From contig JAGQLL010000006.1 in NCBI GenBank assembly GCA_020429395.1, forward strand, positions 30,549-75,288: DNA of 44,740 bases, given 5' to 3'. The position numbers and the translations under genes are program-made. Source of the stretch: Candidatus Dojkabacteria bacterium (GTDB taxonomy: Bacteria; Patescibacteriota; Dojkabacteria; B142; OLB20). The first letter of the stretch is position 1, and the number at the start of each line of letters is the position of its first letter. Shown in pieces: positions 1,436 to 30,276 of this stretch. Under the pieces are notes generated by a model. The model worked only from the letters and a program-made list of their open reading frames with translations. It ran no database searches and was not told the DNA's origin.

Positions 1436-1940
1436 TTATGTATACGTAAATTTTGTTTTCAGAAGTAGAAACGGGTTTTTTATCGTGGAACATAAAGGTG
1501 TTTGATATGAAAACGGCATTTTTAGGCATTTCTTGAGTTAATTTTTTTGCAAGTTTGTCCATCACTTTTGGGTAGAGATAAATGAATGCTGCATCGTATT
1601 TTTCATAGTTCAATTTTAAGAAGTCTTCTCTGATTATGTGAACTTTTTTGTAATTTCCAATTAGCTTCCTGAATTTCATGATTAAAACTAATATAGGATT
1701 GAATTCTATTGCGCTCACCTCATAACCTTCTCTTGCAAGAGCAAAAGCTACTCGACCATCGCCCGCCCCAAGTTCTGCTATATGCTTAACTTTATGATTT
1801 TTCAATTCTTTAATTGCTGTTTTTATAGTCTTTTTTGATGTAGGGAAATATGGAGCACTAATACGGAACGCCTTAATCCAATAATAGAAATAAACTATAT
1901 ATATTACTGAAAGTACAAGAAGGGCAATTAATTCGATCAT
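1425..1940 (-). CDS. class I SAM-dependent methyltransferase with N-terminal membrane helix
   Basis: IAELGAGDGRVAFALAREGYEVSAIEFNP matches motif I (GxGxG) plus the acidic residue after beta-2. N-terminal hydrophobic helix MIELIALLVLSVIYIVYFYYWI. 4-nt ATGA overlap with the PLP-enzyme ORF. Confidence 0.65.
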   Translation of the reverse strand: MIELIALLVLSVIYIVYFYYWIKAFRISAPYFPTSKKTIKTAIKELKNHKVKHIAELGAGDGRVAFALAREGYEVSAIEFNPILVLIMKFRKLIGNYKKVHIIREDFLKLNYEKYDAAFIYLYPKVMDKLAKKLTQEMPKNAVFISNTFMFHDKKPVSTSENKIYVYINEK

Positions 1941-2893
1941 AATCCGCTAAAGAGTAAAACTGGATATTTATAATTATAACCCTTTTTTACGGCTTTTCTC
2001 CAACCAGAAAAAGCCAAAAGAGAATTAAAACTATAATCCTTATGAAGTAAATTATTAACTATTTCTTTATCTTCCATGAGTTGTGTATCAGAAATTACCC
2101 ATCCAAAGCCATTTGATTTTTTTATTATTTCAACCACACTATTTTTCCTATGAGCAACTCTATCTGTAATTGCATCCGCAAGACTAGTGTCTTTTCGCTC
2201 AAAATCCACATCAAAATATTTTGATATTGAGTTAATCTTCTCAGTTTGGCATATGTGGATCGGTACATGAATATTTAACTCTTGAAACCCCTGGTTAATC
2301 CCAATACTACTTGTACCGCTACTGCATGGTATAAAAATTGCATCAATTTCCGGAACCTGTTCAAATAGTTCGTACGAAATAGTTTTAAAGCCTACGGGAG
2401 CATAAACATCAGTGGACCCACGTAAATTAATAAAATCAGGATTATTATTCAGAAATTTAATTAATTCGGATCGAGGTTTATTTGATAAGTTAATGTTGAT
2501 TTTTGAATTTGAAAGTTCTTTTATATTATTTAACTTCGAACTGTTAATTTGTTCACTTAAAAATAATTGCAATTCAACATTATATTGTCTAGAAATATAA
2601 CAAGCGCTGACCGCAGAATTTCCAGATGAAGATAATGCGAATCTTGTTTCTCCTTGTTGTATATGTCGAGCCATTTGATAGCCGATACTACGATCTTTGA
2701 ATGATCCGTTTAAATTATCGTTCTCATCTTTAATTATTAGATTTTCATCTTCGTATTTCAGCTCGATAATAGGTGTATTCACCTTTAAATCGAGTATTTT
2801 AAACTTGATTTCAATATCATCAAAATAATCCCAATAGCTTCTCATAGTAATTTTGTTATAGAATACTTGTAATAACGTTATAATCCATATCAT
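1937..2893 (-). CDS. fold-type II PLP-dependent enzyme (threonine synthase / cysteine synthase-like)
   Basis: NLNGSFKDRS (PLP-lysine motif), SSSGNSAVSA and IPCSSGTSS (phosphate-binding loop). The start is uncertain: ATG at 2893 or Met17 at 2845. Confidence 0.65.
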   Translation of the reverse strand: MIWIITLLQVFYNKITMRSYWDYFDDIEIKFKILDLKVNTPIIELKYEDENLIIKDENDNLNGSFKDRSIGYQMARHIQQGETRFALSSSGNSAVSACYISRQYNVELQLFLSEQINSSKLNNIKELSNSKININLSNKPRSELIKFLNNNPDFINLRGSTDVYAPVGFKTISYELFEQVPEIDAIFIPCSSGTSSIGINQGFQELNIHVPIHICQTEKINSISKYFDVDFERKDTSLADAITDRVAHRKNSVVEIIKKSNGFGWVISDTQLMEDKEIVNNLLHKDYSFNSLLAFSGWRKAVKKGYNYKYPVLLFSGL

Positions 2894-2930
2894 AATACAC
2901 TAGACTAATTTTAGTTTTTAGACAACCACT

Positions 2931-6165: not shown

Positions 6166-7266
6166 ATGAATTTGGAAATTGTAATCACATTAATTATCCT
6201 GGCTGTTTTGCTTTCGTTTATTCTCGCATTTCCGATTATTAGCTTTTTGTACAAATTTAAAATACAAAGAAATCTAGATGTTGATTTCTCTGTTTTAATT
6301 GAGTCTCGCAAACACAAGGTAGGGACACCTATTATGGGAGGTTTGATAATTATTCTAACAGTTGTGATTTTAAATTTAATTTTAAATTTTAACGAAACTA
6401 CAGCGGTTCCAATAATAATATTTATCAGTTTGGCACTAATAGGTGGTCTTGATGATGTTTTGAACTTATTTGGACAAAAACGAAAAGTCAGGACTTTAAA
6501 TAGAGTCATAACATTAATAAAAGTACATCGTAATAATCTTTATAGACTAAAATTGTTTCTAGGTCTCCCATGGATAACCTTCCACAGAGTTATGAGAATT
6601 TTCGAGTCTAACCCAGGGAAAGGTTTATTTGCTCACGAAAGATTACTATTACAACTTGCTAATGCTCTGGCTTTCTGTGTCTGGTTTATGACCTCCCAAG
6701 AAAGCCCAGAACAAATTGTACTGCCTTTTATTGGAATGGTCTCAATAGGTATTTTAATAATCCCTTTAATTATCGGAATAATTCTGGGAATGATAAATGC
6801 TGTAAATTTCTCTGATGGACTTGATGGATTGTCAGCCGGAATGTTGGTGAATGCATTTGTCGGATTTCTTATAATTGCTTTCTTTGATAATAACGTTCCA
6901 CTTGCATTGTTGACTTCCACAATTATTGGAGGTTTGGTGACATATTTGTACTTTAATATTCCTCCTGCTAGAGTTCAAATGGGTGATGTGGGTACTTATT
7001 CCTTAGGCGGACTATTAGCTATCATCGGCATAATGTTACAAAACCCGGTGGTACTTTTTATTATTTGTTTTCCATTCGTAGTCGAAGTTTCAAGTACTGT
7101 TATTCAAAGTGCTGTGAGAAAGCTTTTTGGAAGAAGATTGTTTAAGATGGCTCCCTTACATCATCATTTTGAAATGATGGGTTGGAGTGAAGAAAAAGTA
7201 GTTATGAGATTTTGGCTCTTCTCTAGTCTATTTACACTATTGGGGATTTGGGTGTATTTTTGGTAA
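6166..7266 (+). CDS. mraY: phospho-N-acetylmuramoyl-pentapeptide transferase
   Basis: GTPIMGGL, NAVNFSDGLDGLSAG, MGDVGTYSLGG and APLHHHFE. Polytopic membrane protein. Confidence 0.9.
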   Translation: MNLEIVITLIILAVLLSFILAFPIISFLYKFKIQRNLDVDFSVLIESRKHKVGTPIMGGLIIILTVVILNLILNFNETTAVPIIIFISLALIGGLDDVLNLFGQKRKVRTLNRVITLIKVHRNNLYRLKLFLGLPWITFHRVMRIFESNPGKGLFAHERLLLQLANALAFCVWFMTSQESPEQIVLPFIGMVSIGILIIPLIIGIILGMINAVNFSDGLDGLSAGMLVNAFVGFLIIAFFDNNVPLALLTSTIIGGLVTYLYFNIPPARVQMGDVGTYSLGGLLAIIGIMLQNPVVLFIICFPFVVEVSSTVIQSAVRKLFGRRLFKMAPLHHHFEMMGWSEEKVVMRFWLFSSLFTLLGIWVYFW

Positions 7267-7271
7267 AGCTT

Positions 7272-7280
7272 TGCTATAAT
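7272..7280 (+). promoter_or_regulatory. extended -10 promoter element (TGcTATAAT) for the leader and tRNA-Phe transcript
   Basis: Exact TGnTATAAT 6 nt after the mraY stop, about 35 nt upstream of the conserved leader. Confidence 0.45.
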
Positions 7281-7313
7281 TACACTTCGTTCTTTGATGT
7301 TACTCTTTCTAGT

Positions 7314-7419
7314 AAGTTTCAATGACCAAAGGGAATTGAAACTTAAGAGGAGGAACAAGCGGAAGCAGGAACTAAGTCGCGTTGCGATCTTAGTGGATGC
7401 TGAAGCTTTGTTTCGACGA
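7314..7419 (+). ncRNA. conserved structured 5' leader, copy A, directly abutting tRNA-Phe
   Basis: About 105 nt that align without large gaps to 29702-29806. 9-bp hairpin AGTTTCAAT/ATTGAAACT (7315-7323/7335-7343) with loop ..AAAGGGA; second hairpin at 7371-7394. Non-coding: the same frame in copy B hits a stop. Confidence 0.5.
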
Positions 7420-7492
7420 GCCGAGGTAGCTCAGCTGGTAGAGCACCCGCCTGAAGAGCGGGGTGTCGTCAGTTCAAGTCTGACCCTCGGCA
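7420..7492 (+). tRNA. tRNA-Phe (anticodon GAA)
   Basis: Acceptor GCCGAGG/CCTCGGC, anticodon stem CCCGC/GCGGG with loop CTGAAGA, T arm GTCAG-TTCAAGT-CTGAC. No encoded CCA. Confidence 0.92.
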
Positions 7493-7565
7493 TATATAAA
7501 GTTAATAATATGGGCACTTATCCTCTGATCAAGTTAGAGGAGTTCGGTCATTTAAAATAGACTTA

Positions 7566-7650
7566 GGGCGCTTAGCTCAGCTTCCGCCAGAGGCGGATCA
7601 GCCTTTGGCTGAGGTTAGAGTCCCGCTAAGCGGGATTTACACCGAGTAAG
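7566..7650 (+). other. tRNA-Val-derived 5' fragment carrying hairpin insertions (no T arm or 3' acceptor strand)
   Basis: 7566-7581 is identical to the first 16 nt of the intact tRNA-Val. 7582-7635 contains three 6-bp/3-nt-loop hairpins. TTTACACCGAGTA (anticodon loop plus 3' strand) then resumes, after which the homology ends. Confidence 0.6.
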
Positions 7651-7681
7651 TTATAGTTCATTAAAAATATATGATTTAGCT

Positions 7682-7755
7682 GGGCGCTTAGCTCAGCTGG
7701 TTAGAGCGACTCGTTTACACCGAGTAGGTCGGGGGTTCGACTCCCTCAGCGCCCA
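7682..7755 (+). tRNA. tRNA-Val (anticodon TAC)
   Basis: Acceptor GGGCGCT/AGCGCCC, D arm GCTC..GAGC, anticodon stem ACTCG/CGAGT with loop TTTACAC, T arm GGGGG-TTCGACT-CCCTC. No encoded CCA. Confidence 0.92.
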
Positions 7756-7824
7756 GCTAGGTCATAATATTCATGAATAAATCCCCATTAAAATACTTCG
7801 TTTACATTCTTTTATAATGAATCC

Positions 7825-29441: not shown

Positions 29442-29701
29442 TGGTTATTTATATAAAATATTAAATAAAAAAATATTAATCTATATTCATTATATCAGAG
29501 TATTGCATTTCTATGTTAAAAAACAATTTCTTTAACTTCGGAAAGTGAAGTAATATTATAACCCAGGTTCTAATTCTTGTGTTGTAATTTAATCCTATTG
29601 GCTTTAACAATAAATATATTTGAGCAAATTGGTCTATTGTAGTATCATTTGTGGGTATAATAATATTGATTATTAGATTTATAAATTGGGTTTTCCTCCA
29701 A

Positions 29702-29897
29702 AAGTTTCAACTATTAAAGGGAGTTGAAACTTAAAAGGAGATGCAACCGTAAGCTGGAAGGAAGATGTTCACAATCTTAATGGAGGCTGAAGTTTTGCAT
29801 CGACGTGCTGAGGTGGTCCTTCTTCGCAATAGCTACGAAGGATAAACTACATGGTAGAAGTGCCTAAGCCAAGGCTTCTGCAGGAAGGCGCGCTCAT
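29702..29897 (+). ncRNA. conserved structured leader, copy B, fused to a tRNA-Leu-like 5' stub and extra hairpins (candidate ~230-nt sRNA)
   Basis: 29702-29806 aligns to 7314-7419. The 9-bp hairpin is AGTTTCAAC/GTTGAAACT (closing pair C-G, versus T-A in copy A). It is followed by GCTGAGGTGG (9/10 identical to the tRNA-Leu 5' end) and hairpins such as TCCTTC..GAAGGA (29817-29842). TATAAT at 29656-29661 lies upstream, and a separate TATAAT at 29915-29920 serves tRNA-Leu. Confidence 0.45.
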
Positions 29898-29931
29898 TAA
29901 AACATAAAATGCAATATAATTAGTACAACAT

Positions 29932-30012
29932 GCCGAGGTGGCGAAATGGTAGACGCGCTAGTCTTAGGAACTAGTCCCTTCGGGGGTGGAGGTTCGAGTC
30001 CTCTCCTCGGCA
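29932..30012 (+). tRNA. tRNA-Leu (anticodon TAG)
   Basis: Acceptor GCCGAGG/CCTCGGC, anticodon stem CTAGT/ACTAG with loop CTTAGGA, long variable arm, T arm GGAGG-TTCGAGT-CCTCT. No encoded CCA. Confidence 0.9.
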
Positions 30013-30276
30013 TACTAAGTAAAACATAACTTTCTCCAAGTTCAACATTCTTAGGTTCTCCCTCAGAACGAATCTTAACTCAAACAACGTCTGATTAGAT
30101 ATTCTCTGAAATTCTACAAATCTTTTTCCACTTGTTTTTGTTGCATACTTTTCCAGAATAGAAGTAATTATTTATAGACTTTATAAAAATCTCCGAAAAA
30201 TAATTTGTTACGAAATACTCAATGTCAATTTCTGATAATATAATTATTAACATTCCATAAGATACTAGTAATAATA

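Follow-up and report, generated by a model that had tools for sequence, protein, structure and literature searches.

A structured RNA module of about 110 bases recurs in many of the ultra-small CPR/Patescibacteria, and its conservation and distribution indicate a widespread, uncatalogued RNA family. The copies of this element end flush against functional RNA ends: those of tRNAs, of a tmRNA and of coding sequences. Two of them, copies A and B, lie in the window analysed here, a 44,740-nt stretch of the genome of a Candidatus Dojkabacteria bacterium, where a preliminary description had noted them as a structured leader shared by two tRNA-like sequences. That observation is real and understated, as the 1.07-Mb genome holds six copies. 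Two covariance models, R1 and R2, were used for the genome searches, and each of the six copies is found by R1 with an E-value of 8e-18 or better. The surroundings of copy A are as follows.

7272 to 7280, forward strand: promoter −10 TGcTATAAT of the tRNA-Phe/Val unit, read from the sequence
7288 to 7297, forward strand: CGTTCTTTGA, between promoter and element, which we take to be a boxA-like motif, read from the sequence
7310 to 7419, forward strand: element copy A, whole module (R1 122.9 bits, R2 115.6 bits)
7313 to 7345, forward strand: P1 hairpin with an 11-bp stem, tandem G.A and a 2-bp tip (fold and covariation)
7348 to 7352, forward strand: invariant AGGAG, Shine-Dalgarno-like, the 5' half of the rod's closing non-Watson-Crick helix (phylum-level alignment)
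7349 to 7417, forward strand: rod, made up of closing helix, P2a, a 3x3 G-N-A loop, 4-bp P2b, a second 3x3 G-N-A loop and the P2c hairpin (fold and alignments)
7415 to 7419, forward strand: invariant GACG and one variable final base, the 3' half of the closing helix and the element's end (alignment)
7420 to 7492, forward strand: tRNA-Phe(GAA), beginning one base past the element (ARAGORN, Rfam)

The tRNA-Phe/Val promoter is identical in two congeners in our alignment. Motifs akin to CGTTCTTTGA lie 5' of other promoter-proximal copies of the element, and the motif is retained at the element-free tRNA-Phe site of congener G002. Copy A has the position of a pre-tRNA 5' leader, lying on the strand of the tRNA and ending at 7419, with tRNA-Phe starting at 7420, and RNase P RNA is encoded in the same genome (RF00010, 145.9 bits, C19:22144-22531). 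In four RNA runs, which consist of contigs so that no transcript ends are visible, cover over 7150-7800 falls mainly on the tRNAs; one RNA contig of depth 3 reaches 7156-7361 and another of depth 2 covers 7394-7520, and either may stem from DNA carry-over. The locus of copy B is laid out as follows.

29656 to 29661, forward strand: TATAAT 5' of copy B, read from the sequence
29698 to 29806, forward strand: element copy B, more decayed, with 7 of 36 pairs non-Watson-Crick (R1 102.8 bits)
29807 to 29816, forward strand: GCTGAGGTGG, a 10-nt relic duplicate of the tRNA-Leu(UAG) 5' end, 9 of 10 identical, read from the sequence
29817 to 29930, forward strand: apparent inserted stretch with its own TATAAT (29915-29920), which now parts copy B from tRNA-Leu(UAG) (sequence)
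29931 to 30013, forward strand: tRNA-Leu(UAG), the probable earlier partner of copy B (ARAGORN, Rfam)

The likeness between 7314-7419 and 29702-29806, first seen by eye, was recovered by BLAST on the own genome, in which query positions 1-105 match 29702-29805 (C109:60250-60353) with 75% identity and an E-value of 1.1e-13. In a MAFFT alignment of both regions and their flanks (80% mean column identity), all the conserved blocks listed earlier are present, as is the T-A to C-G exchange at the closing pair of P1. The reported TATAAT 5' of each copy is also there, at 7275-7280 for copy A, with TGc directly 5' of it, and at 29656-29661 for copy B. Both copies are structured as described: the folds predicted for copy A (−42.9 kcal/mol, z −7.2) and copy B (−30.4 kcal/mol, z −3.7) each beat all 200 shuffles. 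The statement that both copies precede a tRNA or tRNA-like 5' end holds for copy A; what follows copy B is the 10-nt relic that stems from an insertion. No tRNA or Rfam family was detected in 29807-29930 by ARAGORN or Rfam, and tRNA-Leu(UAG) starts at 29931, 124 nt beyond the start of GCTGAGGTGG at 29807. In the congener G004, a shortened version of the corresponding element lies directly on tRNA-Leu(UAG). Copy B is thus best read as a stranded former leader of tRNA-Leu(UAG), separated from it by a later insertion.

The module consists of P1 and, 3' of it, a long rod that contains four G-N-A purine loops. In the closing helix of the rod, AGGAG faces GACG, and a single G-C pair is flanked by sheared G.A pairs; conservation of AGGAG is 90% or higher in the 59 phylum-level copies, and the central pair is GC in 56 of them. 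Over 98 copies of the element, the final base is A 38 times, T 42 times, C 16 times and G twice. The loops are of the symmetric 3x3 type, and the core has two-fold symmetry, with G-N-A, four base pairs and G-N-A on both strands. All 12 pairs of P1 are variable and 11 of the 12 show compensatory changes. For the module as a whole, the own genome by itself shows compensatory changes in 21 of 36 pairs, and both larger alignments show them in 35 of 36; in the latter, 94.4% and 92.2% of cells are paired, as against 30-47% with slid partners and 59-67% in shuffles; the alignments used for these counts were fitted to the covariance model and are therefore biased toward the structure. The covariance models supplied, for what had been a pair of sequences, both further homologues, in the own genome and in many others, and covariation.

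Selection on the element is also strand-specific. On the element strand, G.U pairs outnumber A.C pairs by 40 to 19 in the class-level alignment. At the phylum level the counts are 25 versus 5 in copies sense to a tRNA, 37 versus 7 in antisense copies (the G.U pairs of the latter being spread across 24 of 36 pair positions) and 23 versus 10 in other copies. The 11 class-level antisense and antisense-relic copies, summed by hand, show no G.U excess (4 versus 6). In 95 of 98 copies the predicted fold is more favourable on the element strand than on the complement, a comparison that left out one copy containing N.

The element is carried by 15 of 61 relatives, by 15 of the 151 genomes scanned in the same class and by 13 of 150 from elsewhere in the phylum, at 0 to 14 copies per genome. 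Presence is patchy at short distances, with the element in 4 of 5 other genomes of genus g1 and in 7 of 15 of family f1. Among named MAGs, 17 of 22 pattern matches were confirmed by the model, under labels that include Saccharibacteria, Parcubacteria, Peregrinibacteria, Dojkabacteria and Jacksonbacteria. The other five (uncultured bacterium, Alteromonadaceae, Acidobacteriota, Actinomycetes and Cyanobacteria) lacked support from the model and were taken as chance, and viral contigs gave 0 pattern matches. Leaving out 11 matches without a locus, the 50 matches among the relatives provide the 39 class-level copies classified below. As far as a full-text search of the literature reaches, there is no account of such an element, and it may stand as an unnamed entry in supplementary motif lists.

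The preliminary description had recognised no known type of leader here, and the Rfam scan likewise assigns the element to no family. With Rfam 15 in gathering mode, tRNAs alone reach the gathering score in the window. In E-value mode, 7200-7800 and 29600-30050 gave chance-level matches only, such as CRISPR-DR models at 13-18 bits against gathering scores of 35-39, and six distant element loci returned tRNA and tmRNA only. The idea of P1 as a CRISPR repeat was rejected on these chance-level scores and on the free covariation of the stem. The rod is not SRP or 6S RNA, as neither model matches and the element is multi-copy; RF00169, RF01854 and RF00013 have no match anywhere in the own genome. 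SRP RNA is not detectable in the own genome and was detected in 0 of 61 relatives, and carriers of the element are not set apart from non-carriers in this respect. A K-turn or L7Ae-binding RNA, including C/D-box RNA, was rejected on the symmetric 3x3 loops and on the presence of PF01248 in 0 of 61 genomes. Reverse transcriptase is encoded in 7 of 15 carriers versus 5 of 46 non-carriers, a difference confounded by phylogeny, and is absent from the own genome. A retroelement was also discarded, since the reverse transcriptase locus of G025, the sole one examined for repeats, is a diversity-generating retroelement with a 131-nt TR/VR pair. No element lies near any of the four reverse transcriptase loci examined.

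At its 3' end the element meets one of three kinds of partner: the 5' end of a tRNA or tmRNA, the complement of a tRNA 3' end, or a start codon. Among the 39 class-level copies, 22 have a tRNA 5' end at −2 to +2 nt; among the 59 phylum-level copies, 22 have one at ARAGORN offsets of 0 to +4 nt, one of these being called by eye. A tmRNA 5' end lies 2 nt past one copy. The element is also present in rRNA spacers beside tRNA-Ile and tRNA-Ala. The complement of a tRNA 3' end adjoins 8 of 39 class-level and 21 of 59 phylum-level copies (one of the 21 by eye). These antisense junctions follow the functional end of the tRNA, falling at N73 if CCA is not encoded and at A76 if it is, and with an encoded CCA the mirror-image acceptor stem begins 3 nt past the element. 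At tRNA-Ala(CGC), two genera have retained the antisense copy, with compensatory changes between them. Past each of two copies lies a free-standing stretch of 16-17 nt that is the complement of a tRNA or tmRNA 3' end.

Of the 12 copies adjacent to coding sequences, 10 have the start codon at −1 to +4 nt, and the same arrangement is seen at the L35 gene of locus L064. Because the Pfam profiles of L27 (twice), S8, MraZ, MscL and L35 align from residue 1 or 2, the start codons beside the element are taken to be true N-termini. MscL, NUDIX, PSP1 and methyltransferase genes are also among the coding partners, and the L27 arrangement is kept in two genera. Before the essential genes L27, S8 and L35, the upstream sequence is the element alone, with no other ribosome-binding site; in the modelled fold, the Shine-Dalgarno-like AGGAG and the start codon would lie across a hairpin from each other. 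At locus L117 the element runs into the start codon by one base, the A, and in G190 3-nt spacers separate element and partner. The claim of a long, conserved and structured tRNA 5' leader therefore describes copy A well and is incomplete for the element, which also lies antisense to tRNA 3' ends and at start codons.

Promoter-like sequences do not separate these classes. Hexamers resembling a −10 element occur 12-60 nt upstream in 6 of the 21 antisense copies, 8 of the 22 sense copies and 7 of the 16 others, and at least two antisense copies (L078 and L121) have no space for a promoter of their own. A peptide read from the junction GUG through the antisense tRNA was rejected, the median open length being 22 codons versus 20 and 11 in the other frames. 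The view that antisense-abutted tRNAs are retro-copied pseudogenes was also rejected: G246 has only 39 tRNA hits in all, so its antisense-abutted tRNAs are working genes. Nor do copies flanking a gene form paired leader/trailer stalks, since those at L078, L080 and L069 are, by eye, too dissimilar to pair.

Comparison between genomes shows that the element behaves as an exchangeable cassette, gained, lost and swapped among tRNA loci. At the tRNA-Phe locus, congeners G002 and G004 lack the element, and G001 retains a relic of it. Between G003 and G005 the flanks are identical and the element is about 35% different (estimated from the alignment), and the G003 element clusters with copy B in the tree. 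In this tree, which left out two partial copies, the copies cluster partly by genome and not by tRNA. Copy B and the copy upstream of tRNA-Tyr, neither of which now abuts a gene, have 7 non-Watson-Crick pairs each, as compared with 0-1 in copies A, C and D. Tandem and truncated copies occur, as do both orientations. No target-site duplication or terminal inverted repeat was found at filled versus empty or swapped sites, and the inverted repeats of the element are internal only (P1 and rod).

The reading that we favour, tentatively and with a probability of roughly 0.4, is that of an exchangeable leader module that acts on its own strand, being removed by RNase P at tRNAs and serving as a split ribosome-binding site at coding genes. 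Each copy would be transcribed as RNA on the element strand, and the closing helix would clamp the last five nucleotides of the module; with these held in a helix, the end of the module would be the exact start of the next functional RNA. Copy A would be the 5' leader of pre-tRNA-Phe, made from the TGcTATAAT promoter, and cleavage by RNase P at its junction with tRNA-Phe would yield the mature tRNA and a rod RNA, which is likely to be stable because its 3' end is tucked into a helix. Copy B would once have been a leader of the same type for tRNA-Leu(UAG), stranded by the insertion and now decaying. At protein genes, the base of the rod may set AGGAG opposite the start codon as a split Shine-Dalgarno sequence. 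The leader role does not account for the antisense copies. In addition, RNase P would be expected to act poorly on a leader whose nucleotides −1 to −5 are held in a helix, which counts against the leader reading.

An ordinary pre-tRNA 5' leader is short, has no structure close to −1 and lacks phylum-wide conservation, and small RNAs can be released beside tRNAs, as with the external transcribed spacers of tRNA operons and MALAT1/mascRNA. Like a leader removed by RNase P, copy A lies between a promoter and the tRNA +1 position on the same strand, in a genome that encodes RNase P RNA, and a by-product RNA is conceivable. Unlike ordinary leaders, the element is 105-135 nt long, with covariation in 35 of 36 pairs and with invariant loops, and it occupies antisense and start-codon sites as well. 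In split Shine-Dalgarno arrangements, such as that of phage T4 gene 38, a hairpin lies between the Shine-Dalgarno sequence and the start codon, and STAB-SD sequences are Shine-Dalgarno-like 5' stabilisers. The element shares with the former an invariant AGGAG, a stable hairpin and then GACG with 0-5 nt before the start codon. It differs in the size of the looped-out hairpin (70-100 nt) and in that the same module precedes tRNAs, where a ribosome is not needed.

The alternative that survives best, although we consider it unlikely, is a selfish, non-autonomous mobile element of MITE- or SINE-like kind that has a strand-specific folded intermediate, lands at tRNA gene ends either way and is tolerated by its hosts, with leader and ribosome-binding uses being secondary. 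The patchiness within genus and family, the filled, empty and relic states of one locus, the in-situ replacement between identical flanks, the clustering partly by genome, and the two orientations and tandem and truncated copies would all follow, and a folded intermediate of single-stranded DNA would likewise be compatible with the excess of G.U over A.C. Multiple copies and presence/absence polymorphism are what MITE- or REP-like repeats show as well. The Correia/NEMIS repeats of Neisseria, ERIC and REP/BIME are structured intergenic repeats that are co-transcribed with genes and able to alter the expression of their neighbours, and the element resembles them in being multi-copy, about 100-150 nt long, built of hairpins, variably present and found in either orientation. 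Unlike them, it lacks terminal inverted repeats and target duplication, is conserved across classes, sits flush at RNA ends and is strand-specific. Among TnpB/Cas12f-type proteins (in 0 of 15 carriers) and reverse transcriptases (in the 7 carriers mentioned, not in the own genome), no candidate mobilising enzyme was identified, and the lack of matches in viral contigs also speaks against this alternative. Junctions at N73, A76 and start codons should be hardly detectable by a DNA enzyme. The reliance of L27, S8 and L35 on the element as sole upstream sequence, and the retention in two genera of both the L27 arrangement and the antisense copy at tRNA-Ala(CGC), are likewise difficult to explain by selfish spread.

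It is rather improbable that the free rod RNA is itself the product, as an abundant trans-acting sRNA or part of an RNP that has no terminator of its own and gains its 3' end from a neighbouring tRNA, sense or mirror. This would account for both sense and mirror tRNAs after the element, for the many copies behind strong tRNA promoters and for the 3' end buried in a helix, and the invariant two-fold symmetric purine-loop core resembles the site of a dimeric protein. The start-codon copies, however, have no tRNA-like structure for cutting. At mirror tRNAs with an encoded CCA, an RNase P cut would not be flush because the mirror acceptor stem begins 3 nt past the element. No partner protein was found, L7Ae being present in 0 of 61 genomes.

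Regulation through the closing helix is a further idea to which we give little weight. A protein or ligand would stabilise or open this helix, gating RNase P and the ribosome and co-regulating the translation apparatus as an operator or riboswitch does. Ribosomal-protein operators of other bacteria occupy comparable positions before genes, the partners are mostly translation-related (tRNAs, tmRNA, L27, S8 and L35), and the Shine-Dalgarno-like AGGAG would be sequestered in the closing helix beside the start codon. Against this, MscL, NUDIX, PSP1 and methyltransferase genes also lie downstream, neither a terminator nor an alternative fold was seen, no junction resembling a ligand pocket is apparent, and the antisense copies are left unaccounted for.

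We regard as quite improbable a self-contained maker of RNA ends, that is, a new self-cleaving ribozyme or a recognition module for RNase III or a dedicated endonuclease, which would cut at its own 3' boundary and yield mature tRNA 5' ends and leaderless or nearly leaderless mRNAs. The flush junctions with unrelated downstream RNAs, the concentration of invariant nucleotides at junction and loops, and the decay of copies that have no junction are in its favour. RNase III is encoded in the own genome (PF14622, 140 bits), and the modelled rod would be equivalent to about 30 bp with internal loops, at least about two turns. RNase III hairpins are known from phage T7 intercistronic signals and the stalks of rRNA operons, and mitochondrial tRNA punctuation has a related layout. 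As in these systems, a long helix with internal loops lies between genes that would be co-transcribed, and the RNAs would start at or near a start codon. The element differs from RNase III hairpins in the strand specificity of its loop sequence and in its proposed boundary, which is at the base of the helix and not within the helix. No Rfam ribozyme family matched, the fold is rod-like with no obvious tertiary core, and RNase P is present anyway. One fixed cut suits neither the 3-nt spacers of G190 nor the range of −1 to +4 nt at coding genes, and a single fixed cleavage site cannot serve both tRNAs and the L117 mRNA because the element overlaps the start codon there. A broader version, to which we also assign a low probability, is an autonomous maker of RNA ends, akin to the engineered insulators of synthetic biology, that cuts whatever follows, as a ribozyme of a new class or as the handle of an unknown endonuclease, and spreads as a cassette. 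It would generate the mature 5' ends of tRNAs and tmRNA as well as near-leaderless mRNAs. Its antisense copies would produce RNAs whose first base faces the last base of a tRNA, and such RNAs could template, protect or gauge the tRNA 3' end.

A TnpB/Cas12 omega-RNA-type guide scaffold, with the flanking 16-20 nt as guide, has a scaffold-then-flank layout in its favour, including the two copies with 16-17-nt stretches complementary to tRNA or tmRNA 3' ends, and is nonetheless very improbable, as those stretches are duplicates left by later insertions, PF07282 (TnpB/Cas12f-type) occurs in 0 of 15 carriers and in 2 of 61 genomes, both non-carriers, and no neighbouring protein gene is conserved.

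A large part of bacterial diversity belongs to the CPR/Patescibacteria, most of which have not been cultured and whose RNA biology is hardly known. With dozens of diverged copies and compensatory changes in nearly all of its pairs, the element is among the best-supported new structured RNAs, and we know of no precedent for its genomic arrangement at RNA ends. The two covariance models can be used for its annotation, and the element accounts for odd "leaders", pseudo-tRNA fragments and absent ribosome-binding sites in CPR annotations. If it were selfish, it would be a mobile element able to locate the boundaries of functional RNAs, something equally unexplained. The flush 3' ends hint at an unrecognised marking or processing of RNA ends; if the element defines or gates these ends, reduced genomes would mature RNA or initiate translation by a new principle, and the element may also be usable as a part for insulating synthetic transcripts.

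The two stretches that the preliminary description had aligned by eye are true homologues: a BLAST search of 7314-7419 against the whole genome recovered copy B over its full length at 75% identity (E 1.1e-13), and all of the conserved blocks listed earlier are present in the alignment of both. Both copies also fold well beyond their dinucleotide shuffles (z -7.2 for copy A and -3.7 for copy B, with 0 of 200 shuffles equalling either). The window holds these features:

7288-7297, boxA-like motif
7310-7419, copy A of the element, a rod-shaped RNA module of about 110 nt
7420, start of tRNA-Phe, the base directly 3′ of copy A
7566-7645, broken tRNA-Val copy; the genuine tRNA-Val(UAC) follows closely at 7681
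29698-29806, copy B of the element
29817-29930, insert of some 114 nt that includes a TATAAT of its own at 29915-29920

The element had been said to run into a tRNA 5′ end in both places. This stands for copy A and fails for copy B, directly 3′ of which no tRNA-like sequence was found. The 10 bases after copy B duplicate the start of tRNA-Leu(UAG) (9/10 identical), the gene itself starts 124 nt downstream of copy B's end behind a TATAAT of its own, and in the congener G004 a shortened B-type copy sits directly on tRNA-Leu(UAG). From the duplicate and the G004 arrangement, we infer that copy B is the old leader of tRNA-Leu(UAG), split from its tRNA by an insertion in the window's genome. Seven of its 36 pairs are non-Watson-Crick, versus one in copy A. 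The insert at 29817-29930 interrupts the old tRNA-Leu(UAG) unit after ten bases and is accompanied by a 10-nt duplication; in genome G190 (locus L093), a comparable promoter-bearing insert of 69 nt separates an element from tRNA-Ile.

The element opens with the P1 hairpin, whose stem sequence changes freely and which carries a conserved distal insert in many lineages. A linker of about 4 bases leads to an invariant AGGAG, after which the rod runs through P2a and the 4-bp P2b, each followed by a 3x3 loop, to the P2c hairpin; an invariant GACG and a final variable base form the 3′ end. In the 59 phylum-level copies, conservation reaches 90% only at AGGAG, GACG, a T and four G-N-A(R) loop motifs. 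AGGAG lies opposite GACG beside P2a as A.G, G-C, G.A and A.G, with the central pair GC in 56/59 copies; this helix is supported by variant copies in which Watson-Crick pairs take the place of the flanking G.A or the strands have swapped sides. Compensatory changes occur at 21/36 predicted pairs in the six copies of the window's genome alone, and covariation holds in the larger alignments, at 35/36 pairs in both the class-level (40 copies) and the phylum-level (59 copies) alignment, each fitted to the model. In these model-fitted alignments, 94.4% of cells are paired at class level (slid partners 30-46%, shuffles 67%) and 92.2% at phylum level (slid partners 33-47%, shuffles 59%).

The six copies in this genome (1.07 Mb, 109 contigs, 88.5% complete; 38 tRNAs and a tmRNA by ARAGORN) comprise one each before tRNA-Phe, tRNA-Leu(UAA) and tRNA-Trp, two in tandem before tRNA-Tyr, and copy B. 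The covariance-model search that the preliminary description called for retrieved further homologues in the genome, the class and the phylum. A model made from the six copies (R1) matched 15 of 61 relatives, this genome counted in. A second model made from 40 copies (R2) matched 15/151 genomes of the class (families f1, 7/15; f2, 2/3; f6, 1/1; f7, 4/4; f9, 0/46; f13, 0/27) and 13/150 other genomes of the phylum, the highest copy counts there (14, 12 and 8) occurring in genomes of about 1 Mb. As the samples hold one genome per species, often incomplete, a genome in which the element was not found need not lack it. When one genome per species was scanned by pattern, 22 loci emerged; R2 confirmed 17 of them, in MAGs labelled Saccharibacteria, Parcubacteria, Peregrinibacteria, Dojkabacteria, Jacksonbacteria and 'Patescibacteria group', with one locus labelled Christensenellaceae and two in unclassified bacterial MAGs; viral contigs yielded 0 loci by pattern scan. 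The element, in whatever form, has no match among Rfam families, and a literature search, supplements lying outside it, found no description of one.

Flanks were available for 39 class-level copies: 22 stop no more than 2 nt from a same-strand tRNA 5′ end (sense copies), 8 abut the complement of a tRNA 3′ end (antisense copies) and 9 are tandem, partial or stranded. The 59 phylum-level copies divide into 22 sense, mostly without a spacer (one assigned by eye), 21 antisense (20 by ARAGORN plus one tmRNA-like by eye), 12 before coding genes and 4 other cases. Three sense copies in G190 have a 3-nt spacer, a tmRNA begins 2 nt downstream of one copy, and two tRNAs (L069, L080) have a sense copy 5′ and an antisense copy 3′. 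The 8 class-level antisense copies include those at both rRNA-operon spacer tRNAs (Ile, Ala) of two genomes, where the element is antisense to the operon; a third genome has it in sense in these spacers. The junction tracks the gene's functional end rather than keeping a constant spacing from the acceptor stem, since in genome G246, whose tRNA genes encode CCA, the element meets the complement of A76, whereas elsewhere it meets N73. At locus L013 (G044:C8), an antisense copy lies beside a 17-nt duplicate (one mismatch) of the tmRNA 3′ end; the displacement is due to an insertion of roughly 445 bp (1055-1500) with a GIY-YIG-like ORF (by eye), and a four-helix-bundle ORF (IVS-like, by eye) lies upstream. 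At L021 (G019:C3), an element at 1238-1345 on the reverse strand follows tRNA-Ala in one rRNA operon, and downstream is a short tRNA-like minihelix (acceptor-like stem and T-arm-like hairpin) just before a boxA-like motif and 23S rRNA.

The reading that we favor, at a probability of 0.42, takes the element to be transcribed on its own strand as an RNA module whose base helix ends where the next RNA starts and which acts as a leader or ribosome-binding site. Copy A would be the leader of pre-tRNA-Phe; RNase P, whose RNA is present in the genome, would cleave at +1 and free a rod with a helix-bound 3′ end. Copies left without a partner decay. The main fact that this leaves unexplained is the antisense copies. 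They are under selection on the element strand and flush with the last base of the tRNA, some leave too little space for a promoter, and that at tRNA-Ala(CGC) is kept at orthologous sites in two genera with compensatory change.

A selfish element that locates RNA ends is the next candidate, although an unlikely one. At the tRNA-Phe locus, G000, G005 and G003 carry the element, G002 and G004 lack it, and G001 retains a decayed relic. A three-way alignment shows hardly any change in the 85 nt upstream, which take in the gene end, promoter and boxA-like motif, or anywhere in the tRNA, and none between G003 and G005; the G003 element differs by about 35% (estimated from the alignment) and in the tree clusters with copy B, apart from the other Phe copies. 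Together, these observations show that the cassette was replaced between fixed flanks in G003. No target duplication was seen, and no candidate mobilising enzyme was found among TnpB/Cas12f-type domains and reverse transcriptases. We take the element to resemble Correia elements and, presumably, T7 RNase III sites.

A G.U wobble folds only on the strand that carries it, and an A.C mismatch is its mirror image on the other strand.

G.U and A.C pairs on the element strand
Class-level alignment, all copies: G.U 40, A.C 19
Phylum-level sense copies: G.U 25, A.C 5
Phylum-level antisense copies: G.U 37, A.C 7
Phylum-level other copies: G.U 23, A.C 10
G246, antisense copies only (8/9 of its copies are antisense): G.U 10, A.C 1
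11 class-level antisense or relic copies (summed by hand): G.U 4, A.C 6

G.U thus exceeds A.C in the class-level and phylum-level sets, the class-level antisense subfamily being the exception. In antisense copies, G.U falls at 24/36 pair positions and so does not descend from a single master copy, and the element strand folds more stably than the other in 95/98 copies. Overall, the folded own strand is under selection regardless of the neighbouring tRNA's direction. A trans-acting rod RNA that uses neighbouring tRNAs for 3′-end formation is improbable, and a regulatory operator slightly more so. An autonomous end-making ribozyme or nuclease handle is less probable again, and a guide scaffold is very unlikely.

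Other tRNA-linked sequences were noted. An insert of some 59 nt parts the first 16 bases of the broken tRNA-Val from its anticodon-loop bases. Comparable inserts, whose core resembles CCAGAGGC..CAGCCTTTGGCTG, occur upstream of tRNA-Gln (contig C71 of this genome), on several G004 contigs and near a G190 element copy, and look like a second small repeat landing in or beside tRNA genes. The stretches of about 115 nt that precede tRNA-Ser(UGA) (C10) and tRNA-Ser(GGA) (C19) begin like a tRNA-Ser 5′ end and appear related to each other; they may represent a further tRNA-linked insert or a gene that has been interrupted. In the genus's tRNA units, with and without the element, a motif (GTTCTTTGA/AA) that we take to be boxA-like follows the -10 hexamer by a few bases, as at 7288-7297, which by analogy suggests rRNA-type antitermination on tRNA operons. 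Bacteria_small_SRP matched 0 of 61 genomes (this one and 60 relatives), and Bacteria_large_SRP and 6S gave no match in this genome; the group's SRP RNA is either very divergent or unassembled. Locus L075 (G025:C3) holds a diversity-generating retroelement, with a 131-nt template/variable repeat pair (765-895 and 1220-1350, 90% identity) beside a 400-aa reverse transcriptase (1714-2916, reverse strand); reverse transcriptases of about 400 aa also occur in several relatives.

The leader or ribosome-binding-site reading extends to protein genes. A start codon lies at -1 to +4 nt in 10/12 CDS-adjacent copies and, in addition, at +3 nt before an L35 gene; in two further copies the following genes have their own Shine-Dalgarno at 11-17 nt. 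L27 follows the element in two cases from different genera (placed by eye between rplU and rpmA), S8 follows it once (by eye after the S14 gene), and MraZ, MscL, L35, NUDIX and PSP1 are also encoded directly after it. As Pfam profile alignments begin at residue 1-2 in the ribosomal proteins, MraZ and MscL, these starts are genuine N-termini, and no other ribosome-binding site precedes them. Here AGGAG would act as the Shine-Dalgarno and the 5-nt GACGN arm as the spacer, with the rod looped out, a layout that we liken to a split Shine-Dalgarno and, presumably, to STAB-SD. If the module is not removed to yield near-leaderless mRNAs, the split AGGAG/GACGN is the only route that we can conceive by which L27, S8 and L35 would be translated.
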